NCBI RefSeq assembly: GCF_964204865.1
Contig: NC_135256.1
Location: 4,154,001 to 4,218,000, forward strand
Length of the DNA stretch: 64,000 nt
Direction of reading: 5' to 3'
Source: Styela clava
Taxonomy: Eukaryota
Made by a program: the position numbers and the translations under genes. This document shows positions 6,611 through 64,000 of the stretch, one piece after another. How positions within the stretch are numbered: position 1 is the stretch's first letter; every line of letters starts with the position of its first letter. Under the pieces are notes generated by a model. It was not told the DNA's origin and searched no databases. It was given only the letters and a program-made list of their open reading frames with translations.

Positions 6611-8955
6611 TCCTAAACCAAGACAGAAATCTTGTCCTATTTATATTAATAATTTTTTCTATCTTGGCTATTTTTTCGTCCCAAATTTGATTCACGCGAT
6701 TATGCCCGTAGTAAATACCTAAAATTTTAAAACTATCGTGTACAAATTAATTATAGGCAAAGTAGGATATTAATTCTCTTGCCTTTTTATTTGTACACAA
6801 TATTTTAGTTTTTTCTTTAATAATTGTCTGGACAGTGGCTAGACGAAAAGACTCCCAATTCGTTGAATATGGCATCCACCGGGGCGCGTACTGGTCTAAT
6901 TTGTGATAGAAATTGCCAAATCTTAAACCATTTATTAAGTTATTATTTAATACACGGCGGCTGAGGGGCTCTACAAAGATGGTATACAATAGCTTACTCG
7001 GGGGTCATCCTTGACGAATGACCCTGAGTATGCTAATTTCCTTGGTAAACGCCCCATTCACCTCTATAATGCTAATCATGTCGGTGTATAGGGATTTAAT
7101 TAATCTCAAAGCATTTGGGCCTAAATTATTTACTTCGAGTAGCCTCAAAAGGTAATTGTGGTTGACCATATCAAACGCCTTGAGATTATCTATTGAAAAA
7201 ATTATGTAAATAGGAATATTTTTGAGATTGGCATATGATATTGCACTATTGGTGTTATAGTGAATATCGAAGATACTACGTCCCTGGATGGTACATTTTT
7301 GGGTAGTACTTAATATGCCGGAGAAAGTAGTTAAAAGACGATTTGTTAAGAGTTTTAGTCATTATTTTATAGTCGACGTTCAGATTTGAAATCGGACGCC
7401 AATTTTCCAAATCTGAAACGTCGACTTTCTTAAAAATTAAATTCACCCGAGCTATTTTTCGAAGATTTTGGGAGGATCCCAGAAAACAAAATATTATTAA
7501 TTAGAATAAGGAATTATTTTTTAATTTAATTCCAAAAAGTCATGTAAAATTCCTACGAAAAGCAGTCGAATCCTGGCGACTCCATTCTATTTATTATAAG
7601 AAAAATCTCGGTCGCCCAGTCTTCAATTAATTGGTTATCTTCTTCTTCTTGGGTCGACACATCAATTTCTGATGTGGTTCTCCATAGAATATAATAAAAA
7701 TTATGGACCACTTATTATTTCTTTTTTATCTTTTATAATTCCAAATTCATCTTTTAATTGGACAATAATTTTTTGAAAGAAGATTTTTGGGGGCTCTTTT
7801 GTATCCTGGATCCGAGCTTTTAGTTTTATATATTCCAATTTTTGTTCCTGTTGGAGAGTTTGTTTCGGAGATTCATAATTTCAGTCTGGTGTTGACCTTC
7901 TTTTATCAAAAGTTCCATATGATTTCTTTTCATCTTATTTTCTTCTGCTTTTTTGATGGTATAAGCAGAAAGAGCTTTCTTGATGCGATATTTGACGTAA
8001 TCCTACCCTTTCTGGATGAGAGAACAATCTTCTAAATGGTGGACCAAATCTTTATATAATATATAAGGGTTTCTTATAAAAAACAATATTATTTTTCCAC
8101 ACACCCTTGCCTCACCTTATTTTCATAGAAGACTTCAATTCAAGGACTGGGACAATAGTGCGGTCGGAAACGGTTTTATTTAAATAAAGGATATTTTTTA
8201 CACAGCTCACGTAGTTTTCTGACACATAGATGCGGTCGATCCTACGTGACTGTGTGTCTATTGTACAAGTATTTAATTGTCCAGCAGGATGTCTCCTGCG
8301 AAAAATATCTACCATGCCTAATTTTTTAAAGGATTGTCCCAGTATTTTTTCTGCCTCGAAGCGTTTAAAGTGATGATCAGGAGAAGAGAGATTAAAAAAT
8401 ACTATAACTGTATATTGACATTATGCAATCCACTATAAAGCGTACAAAGCGTTGAGCATAGATTTTAACTGCTTTTTGGTCGCCTCAGTTAGAATTCCGT
8501 GGACACTAATACGCGTGCCAGCACCACACGGAAGAGGAAATGTTATAGAACCAGATGGGGTATCGAGTTGGCCGACTACGGAGGTAAGAAACTTCTCTCG
8601 ATTACCACCATCTGCGGAACTGAAAGTTATGTACCAAAGATTTTTATTAATTGGAAATATTCTTTCTACAAGATGTTTAATAGGGACGAAGCTGTTCAAC
8701 TGTCGTGAAGAGCTCATAGAACGCAGAGACCGTAGGAATGTCCTTCGATGTCAACGCGTCTACTGACTCTCCACGACGTACTTCAAGGTTTTTGACGTTG
8801 GCAACCTTAGGCAGCGACGCCGCAACACTGATAAACAGTGGCTTTAGCGCCGAAGTAGAAGCCGAAAGCCTCAAAGAAAATACTCAAGAGAGCGAGGCCA
8901 CTCCCAATACACCAAGAAATTAGAGCGGGCTGGCAATGCCACAATTCAGTTGTAA
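6611..8955 (-). mobile_element. Tx1 family A element with deletions (head, ORF1 N-half, EN, RT)
   Basis: Conserved head 8866-8955; ORF1 8433-8874; SRRIDRIY 8112-8315; KLDQYA 6747-6989. Confidence 0.85.
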
Positions 8956-20949: not shown

Positions 20950-21016
20950 ACATATCGCAGGGCGAGTCCTAACCACCTCACTACTGTTCTAGCCATAAAT
21001 TTGAGCCACGGCTCAG
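20950..21016 (-). ncRNA. Second copy of the putative SL RNA intron half (donor and the element's poly(A) deleted)
   Basis: CTGAGCCGTGGCTCAAATTTATGGCTAG...GACTCGCCCTGC, closely matching 53331-53401 and again directly behind an element 3' end. Confidence 0.65.
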
Positions 21017-50306: not shown

Positions 50307-52382
50307 AGTCTGTATACGACCTCTAACAGACGGGACGTATGCATTGAGAATGCAAAAATTATTTAACATAAGTTGTATCGGTACATGGAATATTATTTTT
50401 AATAAGGATCCCAGTACCAGATTTAAAATATTTTGTTGAGGTTTCTTCATGGCTGATGGTATTCAGATGTGCGGTGTAACCCAGATCAGTTGCCCAAGAT
50501 TGGATGATTTCCTCCTTGAAACGATGTATTTGCTGCAAGGAGATTATATGTGGTCTGTGTCTCTGTAAAAAAAGACTCAGCTTAGGCATGTTTGTGGTAA
50601 GACCATTAACATTCATGGTAACAATACTTAGCGAGTCCATTGATATGGAGCGATTTGGAAAAATATATTAGTGCAGTATACATTACTATTAAACAAGTTG
50701 CTGAGGGATGATTCTCAGCTACTATTAATATATTACAAGTTATTATATAGTCAGTACTACCACAAATGGCTGTCCACAAAAAAGAGAATTGGAGGAATCT
50801 ACAGAATTGGACCAATATTTTAACCGAAAAGACTCATGACCTTCATCCGAACTCTCAGAGAGTTTGACCAGATTTAAAGGACCATTCCCCGAAGAGTTCT
50901 CCTCCTCGATGTTAATATTTAAACTTTCTACAACAGACTTTTTCGGGTCTCCAACCGATTGCACACTGTTTTTATTCTCCTCAACTAACTTCCCTATTAA
51001 ATTGGAGAAATTCGACTCAAGAGAGTCAGAATATTCCCTTAAGTCAGCAGGGATAGGATGTAATTCCACCCTGACAAGGCTAGAAAATTCATCAGGTTTT
51101 TTAGGTGGGATTTTATTTACATTTTTCTTTTCCGACGGTCGCTCTGACGGCGGTGGGCTAGATGCAGTTTCGGAGAAACTATTACTACAGGCGTCAATAC
51201 GGGTACATCAGGAGAGGTTTCGCTACTTGATTTCCCAGTAGATGAGATAGCTGGGAAATCAGCACACTCTCTCTGAATGTGACCAGACTTCTTACATAAA
51301 CGACAAGAAGGTGGCAGGACGCAATCTCGGGCCAAATGCCCAGACTGAAAACAGTTAAGGCAAGATTTTGTGTACAGTTCTGTGAAAAGATACGTTTTAC
51401 AACGTATTCCACAAAGCTTAATGAAATCCGGGAATTTAGAAATTTCGAAATCATCAACGATTGCTTGCACATATCCATTGTACACCCTGGTGTTTTTTAG
51501 AAAAATCTTGAAGACACGCCTAACTGTCCCAAAATTTAGGGAATTGAGCATTGTTTTTAACTGCTCCAACGTGGCTTCGGTTGGTAACCTCGCACACTTA
51601 TACGTGTGCCAGGGCCACGAGGAAAACAGAACTTCAAATTACCCAAGGGAGTGTCCAAGGTTTCTCCGACACAATGTAAAAAATTATTGCAAGTACAGCC
51701 ACCATCCGTGGACCGGAAGGTGAGGTTCCACAGGCCCTGCCGGACCGGAAAAGCGCCTTCAACAAGGGATTTAAAGGGCTGCAACTTAACTGTGGAGAAG
51801 AGTTCGAAAAACGCCGCGACGGTCGGTATGCCTTGTGATGTTACAACATTAACCGACTCGCCGCGAGGGACATCCACCCACTTTGCACTAGCTACCCGAG
51901 GTAGCGACGCTGCTACGCTCGAAAAGAGCGGCATTGGCGTCACAGTGGAACCCCGGGTGGCCATAGTAAATAAATTCTGACTGCCAGGAACACTCTGAAC
52001 TGAATCAGTGCCGAGAGGCAAGTGCGTCCTGGCAGACAAAGATACCAAGAAAACAATTCAGCAACCAGATGATCCAACGAGGGGAGAATACCATAGAATA
52101 GAAAAATACTGTAAATATTATTATAACTACTATTAGACTATATTATAACTATTCTACTATTTAGGGTAGCACAGGATCCAAAGACAGACTGGATACAAGG
52201 TATGCAACTATTTATTTAAAATGAAAAGAAAGACAGAAGATCTACAACTGCAACGATCTACTAAAAAATGGAACACAACAGTAATGCCGGGGTGACCTCA
52301 AAGAAAATACTCAAGAGAGCGACGCCACTCCCAATACACCAAGAAATCGGAGCGGGCTGGTAATGCCACAATTTAGTTGTAC
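50307..52382 (-). mobile_element. Tx1 family A 5' part, directly fused to the SL exon
   Basis: Head 52285-52382; ORF1 pieces 51557-52048, 51117-51569 and 50743-51069; EN start MDSLSIVTMNVNGL (50640). Confidence 0.9.
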
Positions 52383-52398
52383 AACCAAATACTCCAAT
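52380..52398 (-). ncRNA. Spliced-leader exon copy with its 3' end deleted
   Basis: ATTGGAGTATTTGGTTGTA equals the first 19 nt of the Halocynthia/Botryllus SL as I recall it; TTAAGGTA lost between GTA repeats. Confidence 0.85.
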
Positions 52399-52502
52399 AC
52401 CTTTTTTCGGCTCTGCCCAGGGGCAACTGGCCCAGTCCAGGGTGGTCGAACCAGTGCGCCACCAAGAGGTAGCAAAGTTTTTATTATCGAAAAAGGACTA
52501 AA
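52399..52502 (-). promoter_or_regulatory. Conserved SL upstream region (TATA deleted in this copy)
   Basis: Near-identical to 63891-64000 except that TATATAA is missing. Confidence 0.7.
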
Positions 52503-53330
52503 ACACAAATTCTTGAGAACACAATATTTAAAAAAGGCATGATGACGGGCAACGCTGGTACATCTATGGCCAAGTGGTTCAGTGCCCAAAAATGGGGGTG
52601 GGGTGGACAGACCTCGAAAAAAAAATTCGAATTTTTTTTTTTTAAAAAGGTATACCACAGGGTGAGCCCCTATCGTCCTATAAAACTGCCCTAAAATTCA
52701 CATAGGTCCAGCTACTATTTTCATAAATAAGTACATTCATCAAAAAAAAAACACTGACGAAGGGCTTGAAAATACATGAGCAATCGGGACACAGCATTTG
52801 TGTTACATGTTTATTATCTTCATGGAATCTACGGTTTCGCGTCCACAGGCCTGCTACTTTCCATCTCGTAAGTTTTATCTTCACATATCAATGATGAGCT
52901 TCAACGAATTTATTCGCTGTATCAGCAGCATATCTTGCCGCAACAGCATGCAAATTTCTTAACAACAAACTTCTTTGCTGTATCAGCAACGTATTTGGCC
53001 TAATGCTCTCGGCCATAGAATATTTTAGCTCAAATTCCAAAAGATTATTTTTGTGGCATTGTTATGACGTCACAGACGCTTCACATCGCGTCCAATTTAG
53101 TTGTTTGTTGAATCAGATTCGTAGCCCACTCGCGTTTTGGCAGGATTGCAGGGCAAACAGGCGCAGAGCCGGCTAAGAACACCTCGCAGTGCGATATTTC
53201 AGAAAAGCATGAGGGCAGGCGGTGGTCCATCTATCATGACCATGCGGGCGGGACGTGTCAAATGCCCGAAATTGGGGGAGGAGGAGTGGACAGACAGACT
53301 TGAAAATTTTTTTGTTTTGTTAATTGACAT
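52503..53330. other. Putative intergenic spacer of the SL RNA tandem repeat
   Basis: Unique, non-Tx1, non-coding ~830 bp between the putative SL intron half and the next SL promoter/exon. Confidence 0.55.
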
Positions 53331-53401
53331 ATGGCAGGGCGAGTCCCAACCACCCCACTATTGTCCTAGCCATAAATTTGAGCCACGGCTCAGAAGCTTA
53401 C
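53331..53401 (-). ncRNA. Putative SL RNA intron half, displaced from its exon
   Basis: GTAAG donor; TGAGC-CGTG-GCTCA hairpin; Sm-like AAATTTATGG; GTGGGGTG/CGCCCTGC hairpin; begins exactly after poly(A). Confidence 0.7.
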
Positions 53402-53946
53402 TTTTTTTTTTTTATAAAGTAGGCCTCAACCCCCCGATACTTACCTTGTTTTTAATACTCACTTGTTGCGGGGAGGCTGGTAGATGTTCTTCTCTTTAAG
53501 TACCTATAAGAGAGGTAAAATAAAAACACCGAAAGAAAACAGAAGTCTAGATTTGACGAACACTTCCGTGACAGGAGAGAGTTAGGAGAAATGCACCTCG
53601 ATGCACACTCATATCAACTCTCCCTGTCACGTGATGTCCGTCTCATCTAAAAAAAAAGAAATTAAACAGTAAGAGGTATAGCAGAGAATGAGAGAGAAAG
53701 AAGTTATAGAGAAATAATAATAATAAGACCTTCACCAAAAAATATAGGAGAGCCATTATTCTGGTGTATAGGGCGTTTGTGAAGTCATTTGTCCTATTAT
53801 ATTATTCTACTATAAGTTATTAGAATTATTTTAGATAGCCAGATTTAATACCTATGATAGAAATATAAATAACAGACTTGGGGAGAATAGAAGTTTTTAT
53901 AACGGTTTTTATAACAATATTTGAAACGTGAGCAGCTTTTAATATA

Positions 53947-56900
53947 TTATGTATTATACCCACATAATATTTCTTTCCAGTTGGGAACCAATTCATACTG
54001 GACAATATTTCCATACCTATTTTCACGATCCAAAAGGTGTTGATAAAACCCGTTAATTACAGATTTGATTATATTATTAGTATCGTTTGCCGTCGCATAT
54101 CGCTCGTCTCTGTCGAGAACCCTTTTCATCCCAATTATGGTGACCTTAAAAAGTTGGTAAATTTTAGGGACAGATAGAGTGCTGTTTTTGTTATAGGTGT
54201 TATAGAAAATATCTTCTATTGGAACACATACAGCACTCACACATATTTTATTTAGGATGTCCAGGATTCTCGACGACATACTACGGCAAACGTTACAACC
54301 CAAGAAAATATGCTGGGTGTTGTCTGGCCCAGAGTTGCAGAATTTGCATTCCAGTTTAAGTAACCGATTATTGTATTGACCATACTTAAATCCGGTCTGC
54401 TTCCGGCGTTTTCCAAAGAGGAAACCGTTCCGGACTGTTCTAAAAGATATCCCTTTCATAATTATAAAAATGTGTCCTATGATATCGACTGAGGAGATGA
54501 ACAGCCTCCCAATCGATATCAGTGGGAGGGTGCTCAGATCTTTCCCCAAGGAGTCTTGAGTATATGGTGCGAAGGTTGGAGGACTCCCATTCCTCGGCCG
54601 AGAAGTCCAATCTTTTAAAAAGGTTAAATCTCCTCAGCCAAGGTTCAGGTACACAGATGGAATGAGGCATAGAATTGCTGAACAAGACTGGATTTATAGA
54701 TTTAATCTTGCTGCCAAGGCTATATTGGGCCCCTCTATGCCAGAATTGACTGGGGTTAGTTAGAGAGACCAGATGTTAAAACATTTGCACTTAGCAGGCA
54801 GCAATCTTAGTCCATTCCGCCTTTATTAATGTCATCCTGGAGCATCCTCCTACTCAAGACTTCCATGGGTTCAGACGTCCATAAGAAAAAAAATACATCT
54901 CTCTATTACCTGTTCAGTTTGAGGAGGTATAAATATCGACCTCGCACTGTACAGTACCTGAGACAAAATTAGGGAGTTGATGATCGTAATTTTACCATAC
55001 TAGGAGAGAGACCTGATTTTACTAAAGTTGATTATTTTATTTATAGTTGATATTTTTTCTTGCCAAGTTTTATTAATTTTGTTCTTGCCATAATAAATAC
55101 CAAGAATTTTAACAGAGTCCTTTGCATAACGATTAGGGGGCGAGAAAGATAATAATTCCCTAGCCCGCTGATTAGTACAAAGGATCTCTGTTTTATTTTT
55201 ACTGATGGCCTGGCCAGTAGATTTATAATAAAGCTCCAATTCTTGAAAAATTGCATCGACCGAGTATACATCCGATACAACTAAAGTTGCATCGTCTGCA
55301 TACTGGTCTAGATTGTGTTGAAATGTACCTATCCGTAAACCTTTTATTGAATTATTTTACGGGTAAGGGGCTCCACGTTTATGGTGTACAGGAGCATACT
55401 CATGGGACACCCTTGACGAATGCCCCTAAGTATGTTTATCTCCTTCGTGAACGCCCCGTTAACCTCAACAACGCTAGTGATGTCTGTGTACATGGATGTT
55501 ATTAACCTCAAGGCATTCTCACCTATATTTATTCTGTTAAGAATAGATAGAAGGAGTTGATGATCAACCATGTCGATCGAATGCCTTGAGATTATCAATA
55601 GCGAAAAATGCTACGTCCGGGCATAGTACATTTTTGAGATGGACTAATTATGGAAGAGAGGGGTTCTATGAGACGTTTGGTTAAAATTTTTGCAAGGATC
55701 TTATAGTCGACGTTCAGATTTGAGATCGAACGCCAATTTCTCAAATCCGAAGCGTCGGCTTTTTTAAAAATTAAACGAATAAGGGCTTTTTTGAATGAGT
55801 CTGACAGTTTTCCAGAAATAAAATGTTATTAATCATAATAATGAACTCATTTTTAATTGTGGACCAAAACGTCTCATAAAACTCCTTTGAGAAGCCGTCA
55901 AGACCTGGCGACTTCCCGCTCTCCATTTCTCGTATGATATTAAATACATCGTCTTCAGAAATCCAATTAGAAATGGGATCCGAATCATCCTTTGTTAAAG
56001 GGGTTGAATGAGTCTGACAGTTTTCCAGAAATAAAATGTTATTAATCATAATAATGAACTCATTTTTAATTGTGGACCAAAACGTCTCATAAAACTCCTT
56101 TGAGAAGCCGTCAAGACCTGGCGACTTCCCGCTCTCCATTTCTCGTATGATATTAAATACATCGTCTTCAGAAATCCAATTAGAAATGGGATCCGAATCA
56201 TCCTTTGTTAAAGGGGTCCACTCCTTTGAGAAGCCGTCAAGACCTGGCGACTTCCCGCTCTCCATTTCCCGTGTGATATTAAATACATCGTCTTCAGAAA
56301 TCCAATTAGAAATGGGATCCGAATCATCCTTTGTTAAAGGGGTTCTATTCATTAAATCTAGATATTCTGATTGGGTTGCTATGTCGACATGCGACCTAGT
56401 TCCCCATAGCTCCGTATAGAAGCTTTGTACTAAATTTAAAATGTCATCAGGATTCGTTTTTATATTGCCCTGGTAATCTTTTATTTGGGAAATCGTCGTT
56501 TCGGATTCTCTTTTTTTATTTTAATGAAAAATATTTTCGAAGGGGTTTCATCTTCCTCAGGGCTATCGATCTTTGCTTTAAGTTTAATATAGTCTAATTT
56601 ATTTTCTCGCTGAAGAAGAATTTCCAGACGAAGCTTGGTTATAACGTTATTTTTGGTTCCTTCTTTTATCAGATGTGATGATTCCTCTTATTTTCTTTAG
56701 CCTTTTGGATGGAATAGGCTATAGTAATCTTTCGGATGCGAAATTTAACAAAGTACCACCATCTCCAATTGGTGGACCAATTCTCTATAACTATATTTGA
56801 TTAGTTCAATATATGATTTGTCATTATACAAACTGGTATTATTAGGCACCCTTGCCCCACCTAATCTTCGTAGAAGATTTTAATAATAGGACTGGGACAA

Positions 56901-57613
56901 GGGTGTGGTCAGAAACAGTGTTTATTATATGGTGGATGTCTTTGAAACAAGCCAGCAGGTTTTCAGAGATGTAAATTCTGTCTATCCTGCGTGACTGTGT
57001 TCCAATTTGGCAGGTGTAGGTTTGCCCCGTAGGATATTTTCTACGGTAGACATCCACCATACCTGAAGTTTGTAGAGTTAAGCCTAGAATTTTCTCTGCC
57101 CTAGAGAGCTTAAAATGATGTTTAATTAGAACATCTCGCTCATCTAGGATAGAGTTAAAATCGCCAGTAAGTATTATGTGAAGCAATGGATCCAAGATAT
57201 GGATCACACCGCACATCTTCTCCATGAAGTCAGTCTGGATGAGGCCTCGGACAGACGGGTACATAGGCATTGATGGTGCATAATGTATTTTTATTATAAG
57301 AAAAATCAAGTCTGTCGAGCCTATTGGGAATTAGTATATTATATACTATATTTGAACAGTGGATGTTATTTTTGATCAGAATCCCAGTACCAGACTTGAA
57401 ATATTTTATAGATGAATCTTCATGGATCATGGTAATAAGATGCGCGGTGTAACCCAGATCGGTGGCCCAAGTTTGAATGATTGCTTCCTTACAGCGATGT
57501 ATTTGCTGTAAAGAGACTATATGGGGACTGTGTCTCTGTAGCAAGAGACACAGCTTACGCCAATTAGTGCTAAGACCATTTACATTAAATGTAATGATTC
57601 TTAGCGAATCCAT
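53947..57613 (-). pseudogene. ORF2: AP endonuclease, reverse transcriptase and C-terminal Cys/His finger, frameshifted
   Basis: ITFNVNGL, GDFN, SRRIDRIY, SDH, GKSPGLDGF, GIRQGCPMS, YADD codons (~55288-55302), CKFC...HIFLGC. Confidence 0.93.
55793..56343. repeat. Near-identical internal tandem duplications (213-bp and 126-bp periods)
   Basis: TPLTKDDSDPISNWISEDDVFNI.REMESGKSPGLDGFSKE occurs three times in ORF 55771-56352. Confidence 0.95.
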
Positions 57614-57835
57614 TGGAATGGGGCGATTTGAAAAAAAATGCTAGAGCAGCATATATTATTACCAAAAAATTAACTGAGAAATGATACTCAGTCAATATTA
57701 CACAGTTACAAAGAGTTATGCAATTACCTGGCAAAAAATATTGCCAAAAATTGCTGCCCACCAAGGAGACTTTTAAAACCAATAAAGAAAAGAAAGTGGT
57801 GAGAAACAGAAAATTGGAGCTATTAATAAAAGTTA

Positions 57836-59252
57836 TTATTCCTTGAAAACAGGCGCCTCAGAAAAAACGCGAGATTTAGTTGGCGGAAGAACGGAATACG
57901 CGCCTGAAGACGAGCTCTCCCGCTCCCTCTTGTCGTCCCGTAAGGTGGGATTACCTTCAATTTGTGAAAGGTTCCAGTCCAGACCCGGTTCCCTGGTCTT
58001 TTTATGGCTGCGAAGTTTATTGCAAAACGACGCAAGATCTTCATCCATACCCTCTGAGAGTCTGGCTATATTATGATAGTCTTCTCCCAGAGTTTTATCA
58101 AACTCGATGATTTTTGCCTCATTCTCTACAAGGTTTTCCGGGTCACTCACTACATTATTATTTTCTTTATCCCCAGCTGCTACCAATCTATCATTCGGGG
58201 ATTTCGATTCCAAAGAATCAGTTATCTCCTAAATTTCAGCCGGAATAGGGTGTATGTCCACTTTAACCCGACTGAAAAATTTAGATTGATCGGCAGAAGA
58301 GTTTTTCTTACTATTATTAATATTATTTTTCTTTTCCAGCTGTCCTTGCGACGATACAGCCACCGATGTTACTTTGGTGAAGCTGTATCGCGATGGCGTC
58401 TTTGGTGCCGTTTCAGCAGAGGAACTGACTGTAGGATCAACACCAGGTGTTATGGATGGAAAATCAGTACAGTCTCGCTGTACATGGCTGGATTGTTTAC
58501 AAAGACGGTAGGACGGCGGAGAATTACACTCTCTGGCCAGATGACCAGTCTGAAAACAATTCAGACAAGTCTTGATGTAAAGTTCTGGTGGTAAGTACAT
58601 TTTACACCGAAGTCCGCCAACAGTGATGAAGTCGGGAAACCTGGATTTATCAAAATCATCAAAGATGGCTTGTACGAAGCCGTTGTACACCTTGGTGTTT
58701 TAAGGTATACTCGAACGACTCTACGTACTGTACCACAACCAAACGAGTTTAAAATGGACTTCACTTGCTCTTGCGTGGCTTCTGTGGGAATACCACGCAC
58801 GCTAATGCGGGTCTCAGGGCCACGCGGCAAAGAAAAATTAATTATACCTAAAGGGGTATCTACTTGACTCCCCATACTATTAAGAAAAAGATCTCGTGTT
58901 GGTGTTCCCTCCACAGGCTGAAACGTCAAATTCCAAGTGCTCTGACGGATGGGAAAGACATCAGCTACTAGGTTTTTATAAGGACGTAACTTATCCACGG
59001 TGCTGAAAAGCTCATAAAAGGCTGAAACCGTCGAGATGTCTCTAGATGTTGTAAATCTATCGACTCGCCTCTGCTAACTTCGACACCTTTCACGTTAGCT
59101 ACCTTTGGAAGTGAGGCAGCTACGTTGGAGAAAAGGGAGCTAGACGTTGAAGGCTGCGTAGTCGGCATGGCGGGTAACCCAGCAGAAACCTGTCTGCCGA
59201 GGACACTATGACGCGAGTCAGCGCCAAGAGCCATGTGTGTCCTGGCAGACAT
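57836..59252 (-). pseudogene. ORF1 (gag-like, two CCHC knuckles), frameshifted
   Basis: MSARTH start; CLNCFQTGHLAREC; four consecutive ORF pieces. Confidence 0.9.
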
Positions 59253-59557
59253 ACAAAACAAGACTATTCACTACTATAGAAAAGGTTTATTACAGGAGGA
59301 GGTAACTATTACTAGAAGAGATACCTATTTAAGCTACCTTTTATGATAGAACAGGAACAGTAACAAACTCAGGACTATAGAAGGTAACTCAGACAACACA
59401 CAAAGCAGAATCAAACAACAGCGGTAACGATCTATTAAATAAAGAATCGCTACGGAAACGCCAGGGTGGCCTCAAAGAAAATACAAAAAGGAGAGGCCAC
59501 TCACTCCCAATACACCGAGAATTGGAGCGGGCTGGCAAGACCACAATTTAGTTGTAC

Positions 59558-61278
59558 TTTTAAGTAATTGTTTTAAATGTAGGCTCCTGATGGGCGCCAG
59601 ATTCTCCCATTCATTCTTTCCACGCTTTTTAGCTATTACTGTTGCCTTGGCATCTTTCAGTTTATTATGGAAAAAAACTTCTCTTACAGCAGGACTACCC
59701 TCGATATCAGAACACTGCCAATCTGGGCCCGGTTCCTCTGCTTTCTTATGGCTACAAAGTTTTTTACGAAATGTTTCAAGATCTTCATCTGAACCCTCTG
59801 AGAGTCTCGCTATATTAAAACAATCTTCTCCCAGAGGGTTATCCAGTTCAACGATTTTATCTTCTTTTTTTTTTCAAGGTTTTCCGGGTCAACTGCCAAT
59901 TTTTCATCTTCCAGATTCGGTCTCTCAGATTCTAATGAATCCGAGAAATCACAAGCTTCAGCCGGAGTAGGGTGTACGTCCACCCTAACCCGGCCGAGAG
60001 ACTTAGATTTATCAGCAGCAGCAGTAGATTTTTCTTTTGTTCTATTATTAGTTTTATTTTTCAGCTGATCCTGTGATGATACAGCCACAGATGTTGATTT
60101 GGTGAAACTGTATCTACCAGCCGTCTTTGCAACAATCTTGGCAGGAGAGTTAACCTGAAGTTGAGGCTGGCTACTTCGTTCCACTGCTGGTGTTATTGCA
60201 GTGAAGTCAGTGCACTCTCGCTGCACATGGCCGGATTTTTTGCAAAGACGGCAGGTCGGAGGCATTACACACTCTCTAGCCAGATGACCTGCCTGAAAAC
60301 AATTCAAGCAGGACTTGGTATAGAGTTCGGGAGGTAAGTATGTTTTGTAACGTAGTCCACCAACATTGACGAAATCGGGAAAGTTGGACTTCTCGAAGTC
60401 GTCAATGATGTCTTGTACGTTGCCATTATACACCTTGCTGTTACGTAGATATATTTTGAAAACACGCCTCACTTTGCCACAGTTAAAAGAGTTGAGCATT
60501 GTTGTTAGTTGCTTGACTGTGGCTTCAGTGGGAATACCACGCACGCTAATGCGGGTCCCTGGACCACGGGGCAGAGAAAAATTAATAACACCTAACGGGG
60601 TTTCTAGTTTACTACCAACACAGTCAAGAAATTGATCCCGCGTTGGTCGTCCGTCAGTAGGTTGAAAAGACAAATTCCAAACACCCTGGCGGATTGGAAA
60701 AATTCCACCAACTAGGATTCTGTAAGGACGTAGTTTTTCAACAGTATAAAATAGATTAAAAAATTCCGAGACGATCGAGATGTCGTTGGTTGTCATGACA
60801 TCGATCGACTCGCCCCTGCTGACTTCCACACATCTCACGTTTGCTACTTTTGCAAGTGAGGCAGCAACGCTAGAAAAAAAAGAGGCCTAGATGTTGAAGG
60901 CTGTGTAGTCGGCATTGCAGATGTTAAAGCAGGAACCTGTCTACCAAGAACACTCTGACGAGAGTCAGTGCCGAGAGGCATACGTGTTCTGGCAGACATT
61001 AAAGACTATTTATAAACACGAAGAGAACTATTTACTATATGAAGTTACTCTACAAGAAGACACCTATTTAAACTACCTTTTATGGTATTTCAACAACAGC
61101 AAAAACTTAGGACTATATATGTCAAACTATGTAACACACAGATAGAAAAACAACAGCGGTAACGAAAACGCCGAGGGGGGAGGGGGGGGGGGGTTTCAAG
61201 AAAGATTCCAAGAAGGAGAGGCCGCTCCCATTACACCGAGAATTGGAGCAGGTCGGCAAGGCCTCAATTTAGTTGTAC
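59558..61278 (-). mobile_element. Family A element lacking almost all of ORF2
   Basis: GTACAAC head at 61278; 342-aa ORF1 piece 59810-60838; vestigial tail (GCCTAC plus A-rich) at 59558-59585. Confidence 0.85.
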
Positions 61279-63866
61279 TTTTTTTTTTATAGTAGGCCTC
61301 GACCCACCGATACTCACCTTGTTTTTATACTCACGTGTTGCAAAGGAGGCTTGTAGATGTTATTTTCTTTAAATACCTGTTAAAGAGGTAAAATATAATG
61401 CACCAAACAAAAGATAAACAAATTTTAAGATTCAGCGAACACTTCCGTGACAGAAGAGAGTTTGGAGAAATGCACCTTGACGCACACTCATGTAAACTCT
61501 CCCTGTCACGTGATGCTCGTCTCCTCTAGGAAAAAAATACAAGAGAAAAGAAAGAAAAAAAAAAGAATTGAGAGAGAGAAAAGGTAAGATATTAATAACA
61601 AAGGAAAGTATAAAAGAATACATTAATCATAAGAATTATACAGAAATACCGTTACCAAAAAAAGCCATAATTCTTGGTGTATATGGCGTTTGTAATAGAT
61701 AGAAATTTGCCTCGCTTATATTATGTTATATTTTATTATACCAGTATTAATATAAGACCTAAGTGTTCCTTTCATAAGCTTTGTTTTTGCTGCTGCTGCT
61801 GCCTTGGCCTCCACGTTGATACATAATTTGAAGCAGTATAGAAAAAAAATACCAGTTTGGAAAATATTGCCAATGTAGATTTACTGTGGGAAGATCCTGA
61901 GTAGCTGATATTAAACTATTGAAATTAATATGGGAAGAGTCATATACCTTCCTGGAACAAATCTTGCCACAAATGAGTGCCCACCAGGTATACTTTCAAA
62001 ACCACTATGAAGAAGAAAATTGTGAAAAGAATGCAATTGAAGGTAGTCAGATGATTATTTTTTTATTTATTTATTCTTCACGCCCGGCTTCTCGGACTCC
62101 AGCGAATCCGAGATATCACAAGCGTCAGTCGGAATAGGGTGTATGTCCACCCTAACCCGACCGAGAGACTTAGATTTACCAGCAGCAGCAGATTTTTCCT
62201 TTATTTAAATATTTTTATTTTTCAGCCGATCCTGTGATATTACAGCTGCAGATGTTATGTTGGTAGAGCTGTATCTACCAGACGTCTTTGCAACAACCTT
62301 GGCAGGAGAGTTAACCTGGAGTTGAGGCTCGCTACTTCGTTCCACTGCTGGTGTTATTGCAGGGAAGTCAGTGCACTCTCGCTGCACATGGCCGGATTTT
62401 TTGCAAAGACGGCAGGACGGAGGCATCACACACTCTCTAACCAGATGAACCGCCTGAAAACAATTCAAGCAGGATTTGGTATAGAGTTCGGGAGGTAAGT
62501 ATGTTTTGCAACGTAGTCCAACAGCATTGCCGAAATCGGGAAAGTTGGACTTCTCAGAAGTCGTCAATGATGGCTTGTACGTAGCCGTTATACACATTGG
62601 TGTTACGTAGGTATATTTTAAAAACATGCCGCACCTTGCCACAGTTAAAAGAGTTGAGCAGTGTTGTTAATCGCTCGACTGTGGCTTCAGTCGGAATACC
62701 ACGCACGCTAATGCGGGTTCCAGGACCGCGAGGCAGGGAGAGATTAATGGTACCTAATGGAGTATAAATTTTACTACCAACACTTTCAAGAAATGTATCT
62801 CGTGTTGGTCGTCCATCCGTGGGTTGGAAAGTCAAATTCCAAATACCCTGGCGGATTGGAAAAATTTCTCCGACTAGGGTTTTATATGGGCGTAGTTTTT
62901 CCACAGTACTAAATAGATCAAAGAATTCCGAGACGGTCGAGATGTCCTTTGTTGTGATGACATCGATCGACTCGCCTCTGCTGACTTCAACACATCTAAC
63001 GTTAGCTACCTTAGGAATAGAGGCAGCAACTCTAGAGAAAAGAGGCCTGGATGTTGGAGGCTGTGAAATCGGCACGGCAGATGTTGCAGCAGGAACTTGT
63101 CTGCCGAGGACACTCTGACGCGAGTCAGTGCCGAGAGGCATGTGTGTCCTGGCGGACATAAAAAAATTATCTACGAATATGAAAAAAACTACTTACTATT
63201 ACAATCGAAATTTACTATACGAGAAGAGGTACTAAACTATTATTTATGGTAGTAGAGGGACAGTAAAAAAAAAAACAGGACTACATAAGTTAAATAGTAC
63301 AACACAAACCAAGTAGAAACAAAAGCGGTTTTAGGGAACAATATGTTTTTTTGCTATAATTTCTGTATTGCTGTTGTTTCTGATCTGATCTTATGAAGAA
63401 GACATACTCCTGGTACCGAATACATATATTGCAATTGTATATTTACAAATACAAAGAACAGTTCCAAGTCATGACTGATAAGTCACATAAAATCAAAGTT
63501 TCACTGCAAGCCCGAGTTCGTTAATTACTTGTTCATCGTTATCCTTTCTTTTCTCTCCTAACGATTGGTCGCTTTTATGCTGGTTTTGGTATCCTTAGGG
63601 CATGACGCGTTATCGTCATCGTACCTTACAGGACGTCTAATTGTTACGTATTTTATGACTGAGAGATTGCTTCTAATTTTAAGATTAGTATGACTTCAAG
63701 TCTAAACACGTAACTTAACCAAAACCAGCAAAATTACCCAATATCCTATACGGTAACGATCTATAAAAGAAACGCCGAGAGGGCCTCAAGAAATTCCAAG
63801 AAGGAGAGGCCACTCCCAATACACCAAGAATTGGAGCGGGCTGGCAATGCCACAATTTAGTTGTAC
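61279..63866 (-). mobile_element. Family A element fused to the SL exon: head, ORF1, 3' UTR and poly(A), with ORF2 deleted
   Basis: Head 63770-63866; ORF1 62205-63159; hairpin ~61433-61521; poly(A) 61279-61288; foreign inserts ~61780-62080 and ~63330-63750. Confidence 0.85.
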
Positions 63867-63890
63867 CTTAATACAAACAAATTTTCCAAT
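63867..63890 (-). ncRNA. Spliced-leader exon (24 nt)
   Basis: ATTGGAAAATTTGTTTGTATTAAG followed by GT; 21/24 identical to the recalled stolidobranch SL ATTGGAGTATTTGGTTGTATTAAG. Confidence 0.85.
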
Positions 63891-64000
63891 ACCTTTTTCC
63901 GGCCCTGCCCAGGGCTTATATACCACTGGCCCGGTCCAGGGTGGTCGAACCAGTGCGCCACTAAGAGGTAGCAAAGTTTTTATTATCGAGAAAGGACTAA
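63891..64000 (-). promoter_or_regulatory. SL RNA gene promoter region with TATA box
   Basis: TATATAA at 63916-63922, i.e. -32 to -26 from the exon start; block conserved with 52399-52502. Confidence 0.72.

Follow-up and report, generated by a model that had tools for sequence, protein, structure and literature searches.

Spliced leader (SL) genes are targets of CRE/SLACS retrotransposable elements, and a description of the stolidobranch SL gene may reportedly exist in Gasparini and Shimeld 2011. A 24-nt leader ending in AAG is listed for the stolidobranchs Halocynthia roretzi, Botryllus schlosseri, Boltenia, Herdmania, Polyandrocarpa and Styela plicata in the accessible part of PMC3795323, and it is the same exon as the one described here. 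In Ciona, one 16-nt leader and a 46-nt SL RNA have been described (PMC7986045, section 10), and the same source notes a candidate 21-nt leader, unrelated in sequence, on seven genes; the sections of it consulted here present tunicates as having a single leader each. According to the excerpted text of PMC4233971, SL RNAs have been hypothesised to arise from U1 on the basis of shared properties, and some Tx1-clade retrotransposons carry snRNA heads (PMC4494074, in part). The literature searched lay outside subscription papers, genome-paper supplements and Repbase reports; in it, neither an SL gene from a stolidobranch nor a second leader class in an ascidian is described, and no Tx1 elements that target SL genes are reported.

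Here we describe a split SL gene of Styela clava within a 64,000-nt stretch of genomic DNA (the window; C8:4154001-4218000), together with the array to which it belongs. The 71 nt quoted in the initial annotation are the reverse complement of window positions 53331-53401 (100% identity), and we regard it as almost certain that this minus-strand segment is the intron half of an SL RNA gene of the 24-nt leader class. It is identical to the commonest intact intron at 68 of 71 nt, the three differences lying at +6, +41 and +69. Its splice donor, GTAAG (53397-53401, minus strand), follows directly on the 12-nt poly(A) tail of a retroelement, and the exon that belongs to it lies at 63867-63890 on the same strand, with three mismatches to the published leader and the element start GTACAAC directly after it. 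Upstream of the exon, positions 63891-63951 (minus strand) hold the putative SL promoter, with a PSE-like ACCAC at -55 and a TATA-like TATATAA near -30. Because 10.5 kb of L1-clade elements, stacked head to tail on the minus strand (53402-63866), part the intron from this exon, we hold with equal near-certainty that the copy is dead; in itself it is an ordinary dead gene half.

Further remnants surround it, all on the minus strand. Downstream of the intron come a spacer, a promoter and the next SL exon, of which the promoter has lost its TATA and the exon its 3' end (52380-52452). A second intron remnant (20950-21016) has three further substitutions, and its poly(A) and GTAAG donor are gone; the annotation's statement that the intron occurs twice behind an ORF2 ending in ELVPNWKEILC.YNT holds for what precedes both copies, the second being without a donor. 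A spacer paralog at 52583-52700 comprises hairpin 2 (see below), the A/T tract and a C-rich box without donor or hairpin 1, and this paralog (also at L066:7150-7335) is possibly a decayed second gene or a terminator module. An 18-nt core of the intron has 116 exact matches in the genome as against none for its reversed control, and these matches are therefore not due to chance. Rfam searches of the window (E up to 1) and of eight array loci gave no match, and no tRNA was found in a search of the window.

The full SL gene reconstructed in the annotation exists, since the exon-donor pattern of the 24-nt leader has 64 exact matches on the same contig, all on the minus strand of C8 from 4337619 to 4610425, with none for the reversed control. 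Exon and intron are contiguous in these 64 copies and in contigs of DNA runs, which bears out the identification of the intron and is the opposite of an intron that never lies behind the SL exon, the observation that the annotation had named as speaking against it. In two DNA runs from other studies (X6 and X7), contigs run across the joint, one with 8 differences over 1080 nt and the other with 9 over about 860 nt, so that it is no assembly artefact; the runs examined were these two and four guessed to be RNA, out of 24 listed, all as contigs. Among these contigs the 24-nt leader was not seen on mRNAs of S. clava, probably because a match of 24 nt is too short to be placed. The commonest spacing of the genes, and hence the tandem unit, is 1634 bp. 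Across 624 kb around the window there are 112 SL exons and 115 introns, with 66 uninterrupted genes, 46 interrupted ones and three introns without a detected exon before them, and all 115 introns lie within this single C8 array. Uninterrupted genes make up 35 of 36 above 4.55 Mb and none of 13 below 4.30 Mb, and the window is the dead, decayed edge of the array. The ACCAC of the C8 promoter, at -55, is found at -56 to -59 in the U2, U4 and U5 promoters and the one U1 promoter that have it; alignment of the whole C8 promoter to snRNA promoters gave no significance. The 1634-bp unit also contains an inverted-repeat MITE-like block of about 650 bp (L066:6130-6400 and 7372-7740), which matches many foreign contigs and is absent from the window's unit (52795-52917).

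The exon of these genes is the leader listed from mRNAs of H. roretzi and Polyandrocarpa, and it also matches the entries for Botryllus, Boltenia and S. plicata (PMC3795323, Table 1 and supplement, seen in part). Based on this match, the intact C8 genes likely donate the published 24-nt leader to mRNAs, and the donor gene of so widespread a leader supplies probes with which its RNA can be measured. The last 17 nt of the leader have 683 genomic matches, 540 of which are followed by a base other than G; many of the 683 are copies of a few repeat families rather than independent events. Among the first 30 such relics in coordinate order, 23 match 23-26 nt of the exon plus upstream sequence, which places the start of the leader at ATTGG. 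In one LTR-like family, copies reading leader|TTCTTACAG|GTGTAT and leader|GTGTAT are both present, and a leader before or after the internal TTCTTACAG acceptor would be the re-splicing footprint expected of trans-splicing. We also observed pairs of identical, LTR-like repeats in which each repeat contains the 24-nt leader (L132, L137, L138, L140-L147, L149-L152, L154, L158 and L159); the members of a pair are separated by 5-7 kb, or by less in two cases, and some copies are re-spliced to an inner acceptor. The 3' end of the leader further occurs in short tandem runs with 30-60 nt spacing at C5:1.575-1.578 Mb and 2.098 Mb. Searches of viral and prokaryotic collections did not find the leader, and one of three metagenome matches (L127) was rejected as a chance match in a prokaryotic-looking contig.

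The element adjoining the orphan intron is a decayed L1-clade retrotransposon (53402-59557, minus strand) with its 5' start GTAC at 59557, a poly(A) at 53402-53413, a broken ORF2 at about 53947-57613 and a broken ORF1 at about 57860-59252. All 128 tblastn hits of intact ORF1 and ORF2 in the window are on the minus strand, and they cover 40.5 kb. Intact inserts of the array encode an ORF1 of about 470 aa with a CCHC knuckle and an ORF2 of about 1155 aa with an APE endonuclease and RT, and they end in a poly(A) tail, as is characteristic of the L1 group. Among solved structures human L1 ORF2p is closest to ORF2 (E 2e-73; R2, 2e-22). The APE domain occupies residues 7-236, and the restriction-like domain by which CRE/NeSL elements are recognised was not among the Pfam hits. 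The CCHC knuckle of ORF1 and the target preference presumably fit the Tx1 clade; no named Tx1 relative was among the hits of a protein search.

These elements enter at the exon/intron joint. GT right after the exon starts 43 of 46 inserts, and GTAAG is retained behind the poly(A) in 44 of 49 orphan introns. The commonest element 3' end has 62 genomic matches (33 in the C8 array, 15 in the C4 and C6 arrays and 14 elsewhere), and two dispersed copies (L111 and L125) carry 14-17 nt of SL exon at their 5' end, which suggests that the leader probably forms the beginning of the element RNA. Six stacks contain a tail that directly abuts the start of the next element, without exon remains. Such joins would fit insertion upstream of an older element, and within one stack the element adjoining the intron is probably the oldest. 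Several other features of these elements were observed. Many inserts of 2.6-2.8 kb have an intact ORF1 without ORF2 (C8:4.27-4.57 Mb, for example at 4570059); leader fragments of one array are carried elsewhere by elements (L113:8870-8930, L111:6400-6480); and elements in C4 have a constant head made up of the first 14 intron nt. Intact related ORF2s also cluster at C5:7.90-7.95 Mb and C8:7.59-7.90 Mb, and since five sampled stretches there were without an SL array, these have another target.

The initial annotation had suggested that the ELVPNWKEILC.YNT subfamily was the founder insertion. That the founding insertion was made by this subfamily, or that the intron belongs to it as a tail of its own, is in our view highly improbable. 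Both introns of the window do follow it, the likeness between the two regions being 82% over 1.9 kb; any element that enters at the exon/intron joint will, however, end up with the intron after its tail. The suggestion fails on the array at large, where the 49 orphan introns lie behind seven kinds of 3' end (32, 6, 5, 3, 1, 1 and 1) and five intact ORF2 families occur with 40-70% identity, the window subfamily being only 80-81% like the nearest. Nor does the intron follow the commonest 3' end in any of its 14 dispersed copies.

Turning to the RNA, the predicted layout of donor, stem-loop, Sm site and stem-loop survives in its GT donor and in two hairpins that can form, and falls short in that the fold is no better than that of shuffled sequences (z -0.48 for the 71-nt intron; -0.47 for exon plus intron) and that the Sm-like tract is paired in the best fold. 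Hairpin 1 (53379-53392, minus strand; +10 to +23) has five pairs and a 4-nt loop, and a counterpart is predicted in all six SL gene types. Across these six types 93% of its cells are paired, with one pair changed on both sides and two on one side, as against 55% for the columns of hairpin 2, in a comparison of six rows that takes its structure from the C8 gene and in which the aligner shifts the L128 row. The candidate Sm-like tract AATTTATGG (53370-53378, minus strand) resembles the Sm site AATTTCTG of this genome's U1 genes; the lowest-energy fold pairs it with the 5' arm of hairpin 1, and keeping it open costs 3.1 kcal/mol. The GC-rich hairpin 2 (53334-53358, minus strand; +44 to +68; z -1.79) would either close a 92-nt RNA at its 3' end or lie beyond the RNA as a downstream module.

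Where the annotation predicted about 95 nt, we lean slightly towards an RNA of about 92 nt from the intact C8 genes, hairpin 2 included; that the same gene yields an RNA ending just after the Sm-like tract (about 56-60 nt, Ciona-like), with hairpin 2 and the A/T tract serving termination or belonging to the spacer and being either removed from the RNA or left untranscribed, is a real possibility to which we give rather less weight. The division between 92 and about 58 nt arises because hairpin 1 is conserved and hairpin 2 is missing in the gene of another species. That gene, on metagenome contigs L128 and L129, has the same exon followed by GTAAGTT. Its hairpin 1 differs in sequence and is stronger, and a U-rich tract is present, but it has no counterpart of hairpin 2 (-2.1 kcal/mol, as against -13.9 in the C8 gene). 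A short RNA is likewise favoured by four gene types of a second leader class without a comparable hairpin at that place (-0.9 to -7.1 kcal/mol), by the recurrence of the hairpin 2 module in the spacer without donor or hairpin 1, and by the Ciona SL RNA, 46 nt with 30 nt of intron (PMC7986045, in part). The order of an Sm site followed by a stem, as in U1, argues for the longer form, as do the variants in the 66 uninterrupted genes, which, two donor mutants aside, fall at +54 (in the loop), +69, +70, +76 and +82, starting just past the hairpin 2 stem with none in the stems, a count that rests on four or five events. The spacer paralog keeps the hairpin 2 pairing through G-U to A-U and U-G to C-G changes. 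Shortening the RNA does not cure the buried Sm-like tract, since the fold predicted at 58-70 nt buries it too. Placing the 3' end by a 3' box was not possible, as none shared among the U1, U2, U4 and U5 flanks was evident by eye. We take the Oikopleura SL RNA to be about 93 nt. Overall, our preferred description is of an SL gene half split off by L1-type stacks at the edge of an array whose intact genes, somewhat more probably than otherwise, give a capped, Sm-bound RNA of about 92 nt, hairpin 2 included. Upstream of its exon, the L128/L129 gene also has the GTTCGAC..GTGGTATA of the C8 promoter, at a distance greater by about 100 nt, as well as GTG.AACCG..TGTTTCAAAC, which it has in common with the second leader class.

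This second class comprises about 1000 units at C4:23.28-23.49 Mb, C6:19.27-19.81 Mb and C7:8-55 kb (L087-L106, L112-L115 and L190-L203). The C4 array has three gene types in an 831-bp repeat, and the C6 and C7 units are about 490 bp; in each unit there are a leader ending in ATTAAG and a GTRAG donor, together with hairpin 1 and a U-rich tract. For three of the four types a common leader-donor pattern gave 974 matches, of which the first 100 were located, as against none for the control, and elements insert at the same exon/intron joint as in the C8 genes. This leader is followed by a base other than G at 238 places, a pattern that overcounts relics, as 16 of the 238 are array units and, of the first 30, 20 are leader-like and ten an unrelated repeat. 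Seventeen of the 20 leader-like relics match 18-23 nt, which gives a 21-nt exon starting at ATT. An exon of 31 nt, suggested by alignment with the upstream sequence of the other species, was set aside as the main form because the 17 relics stop at 18-23 nt and only two dispersed relics reach 25 nt, and because a 21-nt exon puts GCATA at the distance seen in U1. Longer second-class donors do occur, in a contig of run X22.

At its start this contig (1643 nt; record 21 of X22, presumably an RNA run) has the 30 nt that directly precede a C4 donor, and it continues with C18 sequence that follows an AG acceptor shortly before a start codon. The join is exact, from the AAG of the leader to the base after TTGTTGCAG, before the start codon of a Tweety-like gene (L210:1373-1527 on C18, minus strand), the first two exons of which hit Pfam Tweety in order with E values of 0.0017 and 0.0047, below the curated cut-off. 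Since its 30 letters are probably the overlap length of the contigs, the donor part is at least 30 nt and longer than the relics, and we read it as a minority of upstream starts or as read-through donors. From these data we consider it very probable that the second leader class also works in trans-splicing. The C4, C6 and C7 family could instead be a satellite of element heads whose joins are read-through transcripts or template switching. Contigs of probable RNA runs extend over the complete 831-bp C4 repeat and thus include read-through or DNA, the RNA contig carries 30 nt of upstream sequence although genomic relics mostly stop at 18-23 nt, and a single join is mapped, a second loose end not being found in the genome. 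We nevertheless judge a satellite unlikely, given that the mapped Tweety join is exact at an AG acceptor, that second-class promoters have U1's GCATA at -43, and that leaders are swapped in front of the same retroelement start, which is found behind either leader class (L131, L156 and L157 versus L161, L169 and L176; L153 versus L165) and behind two second-class variants (L180 versus L181).

We compared these genes with the U1 genes of the same genome. Second-class promoters have GCATA at -43 (-43/-44 in U1 genes) and an ATC|A start as in U1; against the two C5 U1 genes they gave p values of 0.002-0.03 in seven of eight tests (uncorrected), and against the C2 U1 gene no significance. Their 3' parts resemble the U1 end with p values of 0.001-0.022 in C4c and C6 and 0.008-0.107 in C4b, with none in C4a (uncorrected); for the three types that align, RNAs ending where U1 ends would be 94-113 nt long. 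In the C8 gene, the stretch from the Sm tract through hairpin 2 matches the final 45 nt of this genome's U1 genes, the alignment stopping at U1's end (p 0.004-0.016, as against 0.17 or more for U2, U4 and U5), but the likeness is weak, as two other places in the 1634-bp unit score higher against that end (26-27 versus 24). These likenesses are to be read as part of 54 uncorrected comparisons that used nine of 32 snRNA loci, and the SL exon and hairpin 1 gave no significance against the first 120 nt of U1. Large arrays of U1, U2, U5 and U4 genes lie on C5, C6:17.5-17.8 Mb, C13:6.27-6.47 Mb, C4:20.1 Mb and C10; the U1 and U2 genes have two promoter types, and a divergent U2 variant occurs on C6.

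The gene anatomy, tandem array, split, insertion point, leader identity, swapped leaders and one trans join seen in the genome and the contigs are compatible with the following mechanism. An snRNA-type Pol II promoter would start the RNA at the A of ATTGG, and the RNA would acquire a TMG cap, bind Sm proteins and end behind hairpin 2. Hairpin 1, an open Sm site and hairpin 2 would form, the last two ordered like the Sm site and last stem of U1, and the spliceosome would join the leader to AG acceptors. The elements would nick the DNA where exon and intron meet, and their RNA, probably made from the SL promoter, would carry the leader. The GT at the element 5' end would rebuild the target, allowing later elements to insert upstream and stack.

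We tentatively propose, as one possible reading, that S. clava has two unrelated-looking SL systems, the 24-nt leader with about 65 genes and a Ciona-like 21-nt family of about 1000 genes, the latter with a U1 promoter and 3' end, and that one L1 lineage parasitises both at the donor. If so, the U1 promoter and 3' end of the second class would support, at the sequence level, a descent of SL RNA genes from U1 genes. A U1 origin of SL RNAs becomes testable, since promoter and 3' end may still be alignable here. Of the results, we regard the second leader class, possibly of U1 ancestry, as the most interesting. Its use on host mRNAs would change the single-leader view of tunicates and raise the question of a division of labour like that of nematode SL1 and SL2, and the resemblance of its leader to that of Ciona suggests an older pair of which each of the two ascidian orders retained a different member.

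Compared with known systems, the stolidobranch leader is described in the accessible part of PMC3795323 as a leader of mRNAs, whereas here donor genes, intron, promoter and array are read. As in Ciona, the SL genes form a tandem array with a GT donor and an Sm-like tract about 25 nt into the intron, the second-class leader end CTATTTGATTAAG is like the Ciona end CTATTTGAATAAG, and the second-class units, at about 280-500 bp, are short like the 264-bp Ciona unit (PMC7986045, PMC6836712 and PMC1488885, each in part). Unlike Ciona, with its single leader and 46-nt RNA, as these sources present it, S. clava has two leader classes and a predicted second hairpin. The Sm site and 3' stem of its own U1 snRNA (RF00003) can be aligned to four of the five gene types; the C8 promoter is not U1-like, and part of the background in the C8 unit exceeds the 3' likeness of the C8 gene. 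Like NeSL and CRE/SLACS, the C8 elements enter tandem SL genes at a specific site. NeSL and CRE/SLACS have a restriction-like endonuclease (PMC4640811, in part), whereas the C8 elements have an N-terminal APE, two ORFs and a poly(A) tail. The Tx1-clade elements Keno, in U2 snRNA genes, and Tx1-Mar, with U1/U2 heads, are likewise L1-group APE elements aimed at multicopy small-RNA genes, and the SL donor targeted by the C8 elements is absent from the Tx1 targets described in the consulted part of PMC4494074.
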